Below the pieces are notes generated by a model. It had not been told where the DNA came from and made no database searches. It worked only from the letters and a program-made list of their open reading frames with translations. The position numbers and the translations under genes are program-made. This document shows, piece by piece, positions 13,745 to 60,372 of a stretch of 64,000 nucleotides of DNA. Source of the stretch: Eledone cirrhosa (lineage: Eukaryota); NCBI GenBank assembly GCA_964016885.1, contig OZ024751.1, forward strand, positions 24,056,001 to 24,120,000, written 5' to 3'. The first letter of the stretch is position 1. The number at the start of each line of letters is the position of its first letter.

Positions 13745-13937
13745 TAACGAAGTAAATGTGGTAAGGAACCAGATGGACCATAACGCACCAAAGTACTCAA
13801 TATTTAGGGTAGTAGAGTGGGTAATAGGAACGAGTAGGACCCTGACGACTGAGCTCAAGCCGTTTCGACGGCCAATACTAGTCCAGTATTAGCCGTCGAA
13901 ACGGCTTGAACTCAGCCGTTGGGGTCCTACTCGTTCC
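13745..13937 (-). mobile_element. Family A element with inverted arm
   Basis: Main copy 13745-13878 and inverted arm 13879-13937 ending at GTTCCTA(TA)n. Confidence 0.85.
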
Positions 13938-14147
13938 TATATATATATATATATATATATATATATATATATATATATATATATATAATATATTTAGAAA
14001 CACACAGATACATGCGGACACACACATATACATGAATGCATCCACACCCAACCGTGAGTTAATGGTGCCAACCTTACCGATGTTGCTCAATGAATGACTG
14101 GGACAGACCAATGCGGTTGAATTAGACTGAACCAGTATCAGAGTTAA

Positions 14148-14350
14148 AAATACATTATGAAGAGAGAAGAAACATTTAGATATAATGAGTAATAAAATGT
14201 ATCATACCTAAACTGCTCCTAGATTCCTCGACTACGTAGTTTCGTGGCATAAACAAAAACAATACATCATAAAGATATAGAGTCTTGATGGAGGTATGAT
14301 ACATTTTATTACTAATTATATCTAAATGTTTCTTCTCTCTTCATAATGTA
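14148..14350. mobile_element. Foldback insertion containing a hammerhead-like 3' half
   Basis: Arms ~14150-14210 and ~14292-14350. The minus strand at 14226-14245 reads GAAA-CTACGTAG-TC-GAGG (palindromic stem III, GUC site); no CUGANGA was found. Confidence 0.5.
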
Positions 14351-14464
14351 TATATATATATATGTATTTATTTATAAAATATAGATTTATATAAGTATAT
14401 TTATACACACATAAACACACACACACACACACATATATATATATATATACATATATATATATAT

Positions 14465-14856
14465 AATATATAAGATCAAAAGATGGTTAAAAGCGTTCCA
14501 TGTATTTTATTATGCGCATTTCAAAAACAAGTATCATCATGCAATAACATTTGCGTTTTCGTCAGATGAAATAGGGAGACATGATATGAAGGTTAAAACA
14601 CACTTGTGAATAGTGCAGTTTTAAATCAACATATGAAAAGTCATATCATGTCTCCCTATTTTATCTAACGAAAACGCAAATGTTATTGCATGATGATATT
14701 TGTTTTTGAAATGCGCATAATAAAATACATGGAACTCTTTTAACCATCTTTTGATCTTATATATTATTATTTATACTCCAGTCCTACAAACTGTAGAGTG
14801 CTACTTATCCGATATCTGCATTGCTTTATTGTACTACAATAAAACTCACCTTCTAC
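14465..14856 (+). mobile_element. Family B element: inverted arm plus main copy plus tail, with two hammerheads
   Basis: The minus-strand motif at 14503-14573 has an intact core (CTGACGA...GAAA-TGCGCA-TA). The plus-strand motif at 14657-14727 has G5A (CTAACGA). Confidence 0.85.
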
Positions 14857-16794
14857 ATATATATATATATATATATATATATATATATATATATATATAT
14901 ATATATATATATAAATATATATATATATGTGTGTGTGTGTGTGTGTGTGTGTGTGTGTGTGTGTGTGTGTGTGTGTGTGTGTGTGTGTGTGTGTGTATGT
15001 ATGTATGTATGCATATTCGCTCTTAAATCTATGTACTGTAGTAACGTAGACAGCCACATAAAGAAAATCAATATATTCTTAGTATCCATCAAACTTATGA
15101 TCATATTACAAAAGGAAATGAAGTGTGAGATGTGAACAGAGAAGAATGAAAAGGTAGCGTTTCTTGGGTAATAGAACATTAAGATGGCGTAGTAAAGATA
15201 TTACGAAAACAGGCCTTATAACAACTTCGTACGTGAAACTTGACGTAAAAGCCAATTTCGTTCTTTATACAAAAACTACATGGCCTTCATTTATTTGAAA
15301 TTTAGCGAAGAATCATTACCAATGGGTTTCATTTATATATTATATATATTAATATATAAGTGTGTATGTTTCAGTGTGTGAGTGTGTATATATATATATA
15401 TATATATATATATATATATACATTCATATACGTATATATATATATATATACGTATATATATATACATATATATATACATATATATATATATATATATATA
15501 TATATATATATATATATATATATATATATATATATATATATATATATATATATATATATACATATATATATATATATATATATATATATATATATATATA
15601 TATACATATACATATATATATATATATATATATATATATATATATATATATATATATATAAATATTGTTAGAGAGAGAGAGAATTGAAATAATATATATA
15701 TATATATATATATATATATATATATACACACACACACACATTCATATACATATGTATACATATATATATCAGCGTAGTATCTCATTCTAGGGAAGTCGTG
15801 GGTAATGTATACTATTACACTTCAATGATAAAATGGATTATTGATATATGTGAAAGTGATGTGAAATGGATAAACTGCTTTCTCTGGAAACTCATTGTTA
15901 TTTATTTCGTAGTAATATATTAGAGAACGATGAGTATGCCAAATAGGAACTACATGGCCTGTCACATGTAAAACATAACAATAACAATTATATAAAAATA
16001 GATATATAAATATCTTTATATGTACATATATATATATATATATATATGTAATACATATTTATATATATACATAATACATATATATATATATATATATGTG
16101 TGTTTGTGTGTTTGTGTGTGTGTCTGAGCGTGCGTGTGTGTGTGTTTGTGTGTGTGCATCCATATATGTATATATATATATATATATATATATATATAAT
16201 ATATATATATTATGTATAATGTATATATATGCATATATGTAATACATACATATATATATATATAAATATTTATATAAATATATATATATATATATATATA
16301 TATATATATATATATATATATATATATATATATATATATATATATATATATATATATATATATATATATATATATATATTATATATTATGGAATACTGTT
16401 GGCTTTTCTCTACAATGTTTTCTATACCTTTCATTTATATATATATATATAATATATATGCACACATATATATATATATAATGTATTAATGAGTAGGATT
16501 CAGACCCGGACTGAAAGCATAATTCAGGATTGAGTTCCCTGTACATCTAACTATCTCTGGAGGATACAAATAAGATAAATTTCACCTGTTTGAAATTTAG
16601 ACATGTATGATATTCCTCTTATCACCAGATAACTAATGACCGTGCAGAGAAACTCCATTTGTAACTCCCTATTGTCTCATGTTTTTGCAAACAAACAAAA
16701 ACTATTTTATGGATAAAATTGTAATGAAGCTTTTTCTATGAAACGTCAAGTAAGTATTTCAATATAAATATATATATATATATATATAGAAGCA

Positions 16795-16988
16795 GTATCA
16801 CAATAGTTAGTTCGCCATACCGAGAACAAATGTTTCACCTCATTCGGATCCTCAGCTCGGATCCGAATAAGGTGAAATATTTGTTCTCGGTATGGCGAAC
16901 TAACTGTTGTGGAACTAACTTCGAACCAAACTCGTCCGATGGACTGAGTCCTCTACTACTATGGATATAACCCAACAGTGTTCTAATA
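16795..16988 (+). mobile_element. (TA)n-embedded foldback insertion with tail
   Basis: Arms ~16800-16851 and ~16858-16912, then a ~75-bp tail. The TTGTGGAACTAAC motif is shared with 23983-24062. Confidence 0.6.
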
Positions 16989-17052
16989 TTATATATATAC
17001 ATATATATATATGTATATATATATACACATATATATATATATATATATATAT

Positions 17053-57660: not shown

Positions 57661-57797
57661 TCTTATTATTATCATCATTATTATTATTATTATTATTATT
57701 ATTATAAGTACCAGCAATGCACTGTGTAATTGCTGGCCTTGTGCCTAAAGTAGAAACAATTATTATTATTATTATTATTATTATTATTATTATTATT

Positions 57798-57978
57798 GTT
57801 CTTTGAGTCTCAGTCATTGATGTTATTTAACTGGAAAGTTTGTTGAAATGAATATCAAGCCACTACCTGCAGCCTCAGATATTCAGGACGTATCGGAGGG
57901 TTCTTGCTGTTCCCAGCAAGCATGTCCTTTGAAGTGTTCCAAAAAGCGGGTCTGGACTAATTTTCTTTAACCATCCAA
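57798..57978 (-). mobile_element. Second R4/Dong-like 3' end in (TAA)n
   Basis: GWLKKI...TLQRTCLLGTARTLRYVLNI*. Confidence 0.7.
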
Positions 57979-58557
57979 TTATTATTATTATTTTGCTAGA
58001 CACGTCTTTCCCCAGCTCGTCTCCTTGACGGAGATGCAGTCCTGGGTCAAGCGAAGACCGAGAGGGAGCGCTTGGAGACTGAAATGTTTTCAGCCCTCGA
58101 CCAATCGGGCAATGTGATCGGTGGAAACTCCACCTTCGCGTTCTATAGAGGATTAGTGGAGGGGAAGAGCGACGACGTACTCGGAGAAACTCTAGGCATC
58201 GACGAAAATCAACTAGCCAATCTCTTCGGAAGGACTTATTATTATTATTATTATTATTATTATTAATCAGTATAATTTAAAATTCAAGTGTACAGATAAT
58301 GGTAGTTTATGAAGAAACATTTCCAGCGCACGGTGGGTGATGTTCACACAATACTGCACAATTAGTGAAATGCTAAGTGGTGTATATCCTGTCATCGGCG
58401 ATTCTATATAGCTAACTGACACATAAAGATATCTCAAGCAGAAATTATTTAATTACTGAATATAGCATTAAAGTATTGGTAGTAACGCCTGTTCACCTTC
58501 TATCCTGATTATTAGCGTACTGAATAGATTCTGAACAAATTCAATATTTATTAATAA

Positions 58558-58745
58558 TAATTGTTTTCTACTTTTGGCACAAGGCCAGCAAATACCCAGT
58601 GCATTACTGGTACTTTATTTTATCGACGCCGTAAGGATGAACGGCAAAGGTAACCTCGGTGGGATTTGAACTCAGAATGGCAAGGGCCGTTACTCTAATC
58701 ATCAAAGCATGGTGTACAACACGCTACCGATACTGCCAATCCACG
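58558..58745 (-). mobile_element. SINE, short subfamily
   Basis: Matches the family consensus. Confidence 0.85.
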
Positions 58746-59368
58746 AATGAAGACATAATTTAGTGGGTAAGATGTTCGCTTTTCATTCAGGGAATGGAGA
58801 GTTGAATCACAATTTCTAGAGTTTTTACTGTAACCTCGGGTTGAGACCTGGTTAGATGAAATATGTGCCAGACGGATTGTACCGGCAACCTTCGTTTTAC
58901 CGGAAGTGTTCAGCGCCCAAAGCAATATATTTTAATTCTTTAGTTATATCTATTTACAAACCGAACTTAAACTCTGTCGAGGTGAAAATTGTCCTCCTGG
59001 GGTGTCGATAAAATAAAATATCAATCAAGTATTAGAGTTGATTTAATCAATTTGCCCATATGCTAAAATGGCTGACCTTCTACCTAAATTATAAATCAAT
59101 ATTGTATGTTGAGCTGAGTTCAAATCCTGTCGATGTTAACTTTATCTTTCTTCTTCCTGTGGTACCAGTCGTGCACATAGGTGTATATAATCCTCATATA
59201 CATGACTCAAAGTTGCTGGCCTCGTGCCTAATCAGAATTAAATCATAAAAACTCTTGGTTCATAAAATATAGTAGTACTAGTCATGCACACGGGTTTATA
59301 TAATCCTCATATGCCTGACTCAAAATTGATGGCCTCGTGGCTAATTTGAAATCAATATTAGAATATCA

Positions 59369-59562
59369 GGGGCGGTGGCTTGGCAGTATCGGTAGAGGGT
59401 CTGACGCCATGCTTTGTAGCAAAGAGTTACGACCCTTTATAGTCTGAGTTCAAATCCCGCCGAGGTTAACTTTGCCTTCCATCCTTATGGGGTCGATAAA
59501 ATAAAGTGCCAGTAATGTACTGCTTAATTGCTGGCCTTGTGCCAAACGTAGAAACAATTATT
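59369..59562 (+). mobile_element. SINE, short subfamily (older degraded copies lie at 58960-59360)
   Basis: GGGGCGGTGGCTTGGCAGTATCGG...GAGTTCAAATCC...GGTCGATAAAATAAAG...TAGAAACAATTATT. Confidence 0.87.
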
Positions 59563-60235
59563 TTTAATTGAAATAAATGTTTAAACACGTAATCTATTGG
59601 ACCCCCATCGGTTTCGACGACGGGTGTTTCAAATGCTTAAACAATGTAACAGACTGCCATTGAAATTAACAAGATTGCGTCTGAAGATATTATACACTCG
59701 GGAACACTTAGTGTCTTCTCAGGGAGATTTAACGTTACACATTGCGGAACAATGTTGGCTCTTTGAAACATTTTTTTTCAGTCCAGTGGAGTGGAGTAAC
59801 GTGAAATAAAGTACCTTGTTCCCATGTGTGTGTGTGCGCGCGTATGTGTTTGTGTGTGTGAGTGTGTGTGTGTGTGTGTGAGTGTGTGTGTGTGCGTGTG
59901 TTTGCGTATATATATATATATATATATATTTATATATATATATATATATTTATATATATATATATATATATATATATATATATATATATATATATATATA
60001 TATATATATATATATATATAAATATATATATATATATATATATATATATATATATATATATATATATATATATATATATATATATATATAAATATATATA
60101 TATATATATAAATATATATATATATATATATTTACGCAAACACACGCACATATATAAATATATATGTAGATAAATATATATATGTAGATAAATCTATATA
60201 TGTAGATAAATCTATAAATATATATATATATATAA

Positions 60236-60372
60236 AACAAAGAAATTGTGGTAAGGAACCAGTTGGACCATAACGCACCAGAGTTCTCGATACTTAGTGT
60301 AGTAGAGTGGGTATTAGGAAAATGTTTAACCCCGACGGCAGAGATCAAGCCGTCGGGGTTAATCATGTTCCT
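60236..60372 (-). mobile_element. Family A element with short inverted arm
   Basis: The inversion occurs within stem III (CCCCGACGGC...GCCGTCGGGG). Confidence 0.82.

Follow-up and report, generated by a model that had tools for sequence, protein, structure and literature searches.

The 64-kb window analysed here comprises positions 24,056,001 to 24,120,000 of contig OZ024751.1 from the genome assembly of Eledone cirrhosa (GCA_964016885.1), an AT-rich stretch of host DNA packed with (TA)n runs, and all coordinates given below refer to this stretch. By self-comparison of the window with simple repeats masked, a survey of 77 TA-flanked segments and alignment of the copies one by one, 26 foldbacks were found, i.e., insertions made up of a main copy and an inverted arm. 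Among these, 24 from 15 families are TA-flanked, asymmetric and bear a one-sided 3' tail of 38 to 133 nt, whereas two additional ones (23982-24061 and 26769-27088) break this rule. Copy density is considerable, with nine copies of the best represented family, termed A, and the 26 foldbacks per 64 kb. Family labels are those of the present survey and were set without the labels of a first-pass annotation of the same DNA. From their anatomy, the foldbacks are very probably 5'-truncated or non-autonomous 3' ends of endonuclease-bearing (EN+) Penelope-like elements (PLEs); as no coding fragment was found among the reading frames scanned, anatomy is what this membership rests on.

Fixed ends and variable junctions in family A

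Family A is represented by seven foldbacks and two copies without arm, and the positions of its ribozyme and tail features are given on the longest of these, A4.

1555..1690, minus strand: solo copy with long end (A0)
8408..8550, plus strand: old solo copy with long end
13747..13937, minus strand: A1, arm 13879-13937 with short end at 13937, main copy with 80-nt tail ending at 13747
17054..17431, minus strand: A2, main copy 17054-17172, filler 17170-17381, arm 17380-17431
27537..27729, plus strand: A3, arm 27537-27589, main copy up to 27729
50023..50642, plus strand: A4, longest family-A copy, 262-nt arm with 95% identity, 15-nt spacer, main copy to 50642
50456..50549, plus strand: family-A hammerhead-like fold
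50563..50642, plus strand: family-A tail with TAT overlap with the target, RCTC..GAGY hairpin motif and long end
52400..52555, minus strand: A5, arm about 37 nt longer than the main body
54402..54537, minus strand: A6, 59-nt arm, self-turn of about 10 nt, then tail only
60236..60371, minus strand: A7, arm and main copy joined via 5 nt common to both stem III strands

All seven arms abut (TA)n and stop at most one base from the junction of TTCC and (TA)n (13937, 17431, 27537, 50023, 52555, 54537 and 60371), six of them ending with TCC directly at TA and the one at 50023 lacking one C. The fixed boundary claimed in the first-pass annotation is thus confirmed, its coordinates being right to one base. 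From this short end, the main copy continues for 80-82 nt (77 nt after subtracting the 3-nt overlap with the target; about 75 bp in the first-pass annotation) to a second fixed end. This long end is common to all nine main copies, including the two without arm, and is degenerate in the old copy at 8408. The family-A tail pattern gave no match in metagenome and viral contigs.

The inner junctions are variable. In A1, the arm goes about 6 nt further upstream than the main copy. A6 retains just 68 nt of tail, and its arm and main copy do not overlap. The junction of A2 holds a 212-nt filler (17170-17381), a copy of 17919-18130 in the family-B foldback B2 with three differences; it includes B2's own inner junction, and the donor lies only 0.5 kb away. 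Hence, this is a local templated filler, the end repair having borrowed from a neighbour. In A5, the main copy starts at or near the predicted ribozyme cut, and two read joints (50549 and 50550) are also located there, which hints, albeit weakly, at occasional use of self-cleaved RNA as template.

For raw-read evidence, reads from four of seven runs were aligned to 50280-50720 at 80% likeness, resulting in a pool of many family-A copies; the alignment is without 50640-50720, where the long end lies. The two restriction-site-associated DNA (RAD) runs stem from other samples, and the results hold at the family level. Among the loose ends listed (24 of 713), position 50565 followed by (AT)n is the strongest in both RAD runs, with 3,531 reads at a depth of about 13,600 and 3,313 reads at about 13,900, i.e., about a quarter of the local depth, and it is additionally present in 150 contigs of one run. 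A second loose end at 50546 reaches the same end in diverged copies. Strand changes occur in ten of the 13 listed read joints, at ten distinct inner positions; in five of these ten, one side lies within the tail, and in three the length of that side fits a tail-only main copy. Since 50565 ranks first among the listed loose ends in the raw data of both these samples, short end and foldback are not an assembly artefact, and the foldbacks that the first-pass annotation wanted to see in raw reads appear there, at the family level, as strand-switch joints. Depth drops 15- to 22-fold upstream of 50500-50520, inside the long stem II of the hammerhead-like fold, where loose ends are heterogeneous (agreement of about 0.4 at 50501 and 50515). 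The inner junction therefore varies as had been stated, but not at random, given this drop and the recurring 5' ends of families B and C described below. Reads filed under another species label (word share 0.20) represent a related family that shares stem III and the GUC region but has a different long end.

Hammerhead folds, target overlap and the remaining families

Scanning the window for the hammerhead core gave 22 matches, and the complete type I descriptor gave 13, all located within TA-flanked elements in sense orientation and reading toward the 3' end. In the repeat-stripped window, eight canonical matches compare with a mean of 0.13 and a maximum of 1 in 60 shuffles. Descriptor matches are found in families B, C, E, G, H and J as well as in a partial tandem at 51310-51874, and the core is also present in F; canonical folds are formed in B, C, E, G and J, while no hammerhead was detected in D, I, K, L, M, x14 and y29. 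In family A, the predicted fold consists of stem I (CCCC/GGGG), a variant core, the long stem II (about 50470-50518), GAAA, stem III and the GUC triplet, with cleavage predicted after 50545 and GG at 50547-48 restored by read majority. This fold is intact in no single copy of the window and is missed by the type I descriptor; folding of the region gives z values of -0.46 and +0.29. In the cores of H (52090-52208) and A (50456-50549), U3:A8 replaces C3:G8, the family-A variant at 50460 being present in 254 of 567 and 222 of 442 reads. Hammerhead cores with U3:A8 can be active. The notion that the arm end represents the ribozyme cut site was rejected, since it follows the cut at a distance ranging from 17 nt in A to about 45 nt in C. 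The microRNA (miRNA) matches topping the Rfam results for the window are palindrome or TA-repeat artefacts.

The other foldbacks and related copies are as follows.

58..285, plus strand: family D foldback, 61-nt tail, no TA overlap, hammerhead not found
9267..9736, minus strand: B1, 134-nt arm with 100% identity, main copy 118 nt longer, hammerhead at 9510-9544, 68-nt tail
12378..12774, plus strand: E1, hammerhead at 12580-12628, tail of about 90 nt
14020..14348, minus strand: foldback x14, tail of about 133 nt, long end uncertain
14466..14856, plus strand: family C foldback, 92-nt tail
16789..16989, plus strand: family F foldback, 68-nt tail
17843..18227, minus strand: B2, arm of about 268 nt with hammerhead core, main body of only 59 nt, 58-nt tail
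23982-24061: probable short+short copy of family F with two short ends, from a thin 17-nt match
24206-24456, minus strand: family C solo, long copy with hammerhead
26769..27088, minus strand: B-related copy breaking the rule, short 3' end and 23-nt mini-arm at the 5' end, far from the 3' end
29895..30109, plus strand: foldback y29, 103-nt tail, arms 84% identical
30205..30405, minus strand: foldback M, tail of about 61 nt with hairpin motif, no TA overlap
40026-40160: E2, 73-nt tail
about 50950-51035: family G solo, short copy
51310..51874, minus strand: partial tandem, 103-nt direct repeat, unit of about 462 nt, one complete type I hammerhead
51949..52284, minus strand: family H foldback, hammerhead of the U3:A8 type in both arms, 64-nt tail
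53578..53783, plus strand: family G foldback, hammerhead at 53656-53694, tail of 61-67 nt
55607..55865, minus strand: family I foldback, 93-nt tail
55992..56327, plus strand: family J foldback, 114-nt arms with 100% identity, hammerhead in both, 99-nt tail
60731..60954, minus strand: family K foldback, 46-nt tail, hairpin motif within both arms
61462..62178, minus strand: family L foldback, 148-nt arm, 383-nt spacer, 38-nt tail, 5-nt TA overlap
62929..63052, minus strand: B3, 58-nt tail, arm exceeding the main body by 20 nt
63749-63915, plus strand: family C solo, short copy with hammerhead

The one-sided tail of 50-100 bp that had been ascribed to further families is found in 20 of the 24 asymmetric foldbacks, but the remaining four have tails of about 38, 46, 103 and 133 nt, and the two rule-breaking copies lie outside the scheme. 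Arm and partner sequences differ in 19 of the 22 measured foldbacks (84-99% identity), as expected for aged insertions. Arms carry subfamily variants of their partner main copies; in four of six cases the arm is best matched by, or tied with, its own main copy, and the other two are within one base.

At the short end, overlap was determined by comparing the continuation of the main copy with the TA flank, hand-checked and with one value per family: 5 nt in L, 4 nt in B and E (the latter taken from E2), 3 nt in A, C, H, I and x14, 2 nt in J and K, 1 nt in G and y29 and none in D, F and M. An overlap of at least 3 nt (3-5 nt) is seen in eight of the 15 families, whereas chance predicts 1.55 families (P = 4e-5), or 3.05 when each family is allowed its better phase (P = 0.003); the summed overlap gives P = 0.0008 under the first null. 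The short site is thus TA-like more often than by chance, yet not always. In the tandem at 51310-51874, read-through beyond the 3' end overlaps the TA flank by 4 nt. A B-like solo at 12078-12377 stops about 35 nt short of the usual short end, with a 1-nt TA overlap there.

An RCTC..GAGY motif begins at most 12 nt from the short end in families A, C, E, F, G and J, compared to a background rate of 85 in 9,422 windows. Family M has a TCTC variant at this position, and in I the motif lies further in. In K, it is found inside both arms, both ends thus being further 3' than in sister families, which possibly reflects a third start site. Among the six families without the motif, four show an overlap of at least 3 nt (P = 0.001 and 0.015, respectively). 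The tails do not stand out in folding energy (z from -2.7 to +1.3, with three of 21 below -2), so that the hairpin rests on the motif and not on stability.

Further TA-flanked solo 3' ends without arms are located at 23086-23202, 30433-30545, 39874-39935, 8610-8695, 49646-49732 and 55342-55505, the last one bearing a complete hammerhead related to that of family J.

Origin of the foldbacks

With a probability of roughly 0.6, the foldbacks are 3' ends of (TA)n-targeting PLEs formed when both cut target strands prime on the element RNA at two programmed sites. The RNA would carry, in this order, the hammerhead, the TA-like site (short end), the hairpin-bearing tail and the long end. A GIY-YIG/reverse transcriptase (RT) protein would cut both strands of a (TA)n tract, as presumed here from the behaviour of another PLE on AT-rich DNA in vitro. 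Synthesis on one target 3' end would then begin at the long start and that on the other end at the short start, which lies 40-100 nt further upstream, the latter often aided by putative base-pairing of 2-5 nt with the TA primer; two starts have been seen in vitro for another PLE, and the long+short pairing and the TA overlap are statistical findings from the window. Both cDNAs would run toward the 5' end of the RNA, often stopping close to or within the hammerhead or where the RNA itself has a fixed 5' end, a presumed cause for the clustering of inner ends that is seen. Host end-joining, as the supposed activity behind the observed junction anatomy, would finally link the cDNA ends head to head via microhomology and small or templated fillers. 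Either one RNA with strand displacement or two RNAs could be the template.

Where both ends are known at the family level, 14 of 15 foldbacks combine a long and a short end, one has two short ends and none has two long ends (the mini-arm copy at 26769-27088 being excluded from this count), whereas independent choice of ends predicts at most 50% long+short (P<=0.0005). Solo copies with a short end (63749, 50950, 9180 and 26769) indicate that no long partner is needed for the short site to be used. Inner junctions are assignable in 13 of the 24 foldbacks; in eight of these (A1, A2, A5, A6, B2, B3, C1 and F1) the arm reaches further upstream than the main copy, by 6 to 209 nt with the maximum in B2, and in A3, A4, A7, B1 and G1 the main copy reaches further. 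A tail-only main copy is present in A6 and in at least three read joints. Recurring 5' ends, with three copies each, are found in B-like elements (about 9603, 27036 and 12348) and in family C (about 14620, 24456 and 63749), which suggests short non-autonomous RNAs with a defined start. We take the B-like start to resemble a YY1 site.

Several observations weigh against this reading. The TA overlap amounts to 0-1 nt in five of the 15 families and is zero in E1, where the flank is not clean TA, and its sum fails to reach significance when the best phase is allowed (P = 0.07). The TA-like arm end, which the first-pass annotation took for a site of second-strand priming, has statistical support as such. 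However, the TA-like site may also reflect a preference of the endonuclease instead of primer pairing, the overlap being compatible with either. Moreover, the families sharing the hairpin motif are probably related and hence not independent, and the PLE studied by Frangieh et al. (PMC11167929) starts in vitro at sites non-homologous to the target. As to PLE identity, Rfam gave no hammerhead among the best 150 of its 331 matches to the window, two targeted scans gave none either, and Pfam revealed no PLE RT or GIY-YIG domain in 148 of the 160 non-repetitive six-frame open reading frames (ORFs) of at least 55 aa. Finally, spacers of at most 15 nt in ten of 22 foldbacks with arms of 23-262 nt, the short self-turns in A6 and 26769-27088 and the possibility that arm-longer junctions are later deletions at palindrome centres lead to another explanation.

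According to this explanation, target-primed reverse transcription (TPRT) proceeds from the long start only, the cDNA 3' end snaps back and primes itself, and the second strand is copied until an endonuclease cut at the TA-like site or a bound protein blocks further copying, with the end then being joined to the target; the TA overlap would be a cutting preference and the arm-longer cases central deletions. The short spacers, among them the 15 nt between the 262-nt arms of A4, suggest ends coupled in this manner, although shared stop points could account for them as well, and the mini-turns and shared subfamily variants agree with it. In addition, the tail is ascribed to endonuclease resolution in PMC8557442, and self-priming has been argued from junction palindromes in PMC3846280. 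However, eight of the 13 assignable junctions would require one-sided deletions of 6-209 nt, A6 and the read joints would need to have lost their overlap entirely, solo short-end copies find no simple account, and in vitro RT starts at each of the two tail boundaries, on both strands (PMC11167929). Hence, we regard this route as rather unlikely. Much less can be said for two separate events, in which a second copy of the same family would have entered the first or landed next to it in opposite orientation, or for later recombination between copies. The families are abundant and share target tracts, and A2 did take up neighbouring sequence, but (TA)n is absent between the arms, 14 of 15 foldbacks are long+short and arms carry the variants of their partners, which makes this scenario quite improbable. 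TA flanks and long inverted repeats might also call to mind a foldback DNA transposon or a miniature inverted-repeat transposable element (MITE), whose terminal inverted repeats would lie next to an unrelated flank. This interpretation is already largely refuted by the conserved one-sided tail, variable inner ends, armless solo copies and hammerheads pointing to the tail, and deserves hardly any credence; the first-pass annotation had been right in dismissing symmetric terminal repeats. Practically negligible is the chance of an assembly or library artefact. The A4 junction is indeed spanned by no listed read or contig, but the short end abutting (AT)n as well as strand-switch joints are present in thousands of short raw reads from two other samples, and the sequence differences between arm and partner in 19 of 22 foldbacks also contradict it.

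Programmed priming by both target strands would use the second strand at an internal site, like the twin-priming-like origin assumed earlier, but in most copies the arm duplicates the same RNA stretch as the main copy, while A6 and some read joints are non-overlapping as that model predicts. Because of the shared stretch, L1-style twin priming on one RNA is insufficient without strand displacement or a second RNA. A more specific proposal, which we advance tentatively and with more doubt than confidence, is that in (TA)n-inserting PLEs of the Hydra clade programmed twin priming is the normal route and the strict long+short foldback the standard product. A protein dimer, positioned by the tail hairpin, might prime one strand at the long start and the other, via 2-5 bp, at the TA-like start. 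If true, the inverted repeats of PLEs would find their explanation, and homology-free initiation could no longer be a rule for PLEs in general.

Neighbouring sequences and comparison with known systems

Besides the foldbacks, the window contains an intact single-exon ORF for a rhodopsin-family G-protein-coupled receptor (34018-35004, PF10324; best match to an Octopus bimaculoides protein with 76% identity) and a broken long interspersed nuclear element (LINE) at 42660-46050 with an APE endonuclease match (PF03372), an RT start and a 280-nt direct repeat at its 3' end, which appears L1/Tx1-like by eye. A segment at 2000-2474, without Pfam match, presumably resembles the C-terminal endonuclease region of a CRE/R2-type element, and a 75-nt copy of it (1687-1761) adjoins the solo copy A0 via four shared bases. 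Tandem arrays with 94-98% identity are located at 24915-26074 (units of about 166 nt) and 56575-57326 (about 151 nt), in which the hammerhead core was not found. An abundant dispersed family resembling short interspersed nuclear elements (SINEs) occurs at 1820, 4408, 7977, 19248, 31794, 37266, 38357, 46053, 48284, 58545 and 59375, with two copies forming an inverted pair at 58545-59575.

The architecture of the foldbacks is known, while the families themselves are undescribed in the literature searched. EN+ PLEs combine a hammerhead with a truncated copy in inverted orientation, a tail and insertion into (TA)n (PMC8557442, PMC3846280), and the window elements display an inverted 5'-truncated copy joined at the 5' end, a tail, sense type I hammerheads and one partial tandem. 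Their flanks consist of (TA)n, and an empty allele was not seen. The PLE layout recognized in the first-pass annotation, an inverted 5'-truncated pseudo-long terminal repeat (pLTR) plus 3' extension, is thus borne out, with the sense hammerheads as added evidence. According to Craig et al. (2021; PMC8557442), the way in which the inverted copy and the tail arise has yet to be resolved. The high copy density makes this question accessible from sequence by way of end pairing, target overlap and arms exceeding the main copy. As such palindromes can readily be mistaken for MITEs, SINEs or miRNA hairpins, PLEs may be undercounted in octopus; for O. vulgaris, 30 recently active Penelope families have been reported (PMC13282606).

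From anatomy and layout, the elements probably belong to the Hydra clade, which has canonical hammerheads, (TA)n insertion and an Octopus member (Craig et al., 2021). Other marks of the clade, namely its place in the RT phylogeny, the RWK and DKT motifs and an EN without CCHH, lie in coding sequence, of which none is linked to the window ends. Hydra-1_Obim, Hydra-2_Ajap and Penelope-13_HM are alike in (TA)n target and a type I hammerhead near the 3' end, and an inverted 5'-truncated copy is noted in PMC8557442 for one published family. By eye, three of six new Hydra consensi end with hammerhead, TA-rich patch, a GCTC-type hairpin and 30-45 nt, and the other three stop at the TA-rich patch, one of these beginning with the hairpin; restricted to Hydra consensi and visual comparison, this likeness is a lead toward the clade and not a test. 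On the other hand, the window copies lack an ORF, unlike Hydra-clade PLEs, their tails mostly measure 58-100 nt versus 30-40 bp published for PLEs (PMC8557442), and the hammerhead of Hydra-1_Obim is not among the window matches. Seven of eight 9- to 14-mers tried were absent from the supplement of PMC8557442, the eighth matching only unrelated coding DNA there. Naiad PLEs share (TA)n bias, inverted copy, tail and presence in Octopus; they are described as having no canonical hammerheads and as inactive remnants in cephalopods (PMC8557442), in contrast to the canonical folds of B, C, E, G and J, while D, I, K, L, M, x14 and y29 may be Naiad.

In the PAc/Poseidon element of Anolis carolinensis (Frangieh et al., 2024; PMC11167929), two fixed ends likewise bound the tail, with a hammerhead upstream and AT-rich targets; both target strands are cut and extended, two internal RT starts bound the tail and a dimer is predicted. 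PAc starts have no target homology, whereas 2-5 nt of target overlap are found in ten of the 15 families of the window, and inverted insertions are not discussed in the main text of that paper. In the literature searched, the supplements of PMC11167929 not included, no mention was found of TA overlap at the short start, of a strict combination of long with short ends or of the tail hairpin. In L1 twin or dual priming (PMC2837659), the second target strand also primes inside the RNA and gives rise to an inverted segment, and the microhomology of the second target end with an internal RNA site is mirrored in the eight families with at least 3 nt overlap. The L1 product, however, is an inversion with internal deletion, while in the window each family has its own fixed site and the two arms mostly hold the same sequence; non-overlapping pieces of the L1 type are confined to one of the seven family-A copies (A6) and some read joints, the other six overlapping. 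Non-LTR retrozymes (bioRxiv 10.64898/2026.07.22.740005) are likewise non-coding, PLE-derived and equipped with type I hammerheads, but form head-to-tail tandems, in contrast to the head-to-head foldbacks of most window copies. Instead of at least two tandem units each with a hammerhead, the retrozyme-like partial tandem at 51310-51874, a TA-flanked, non-coding copy of a family other than A, comprises 1.2 units with one full hammerhead.

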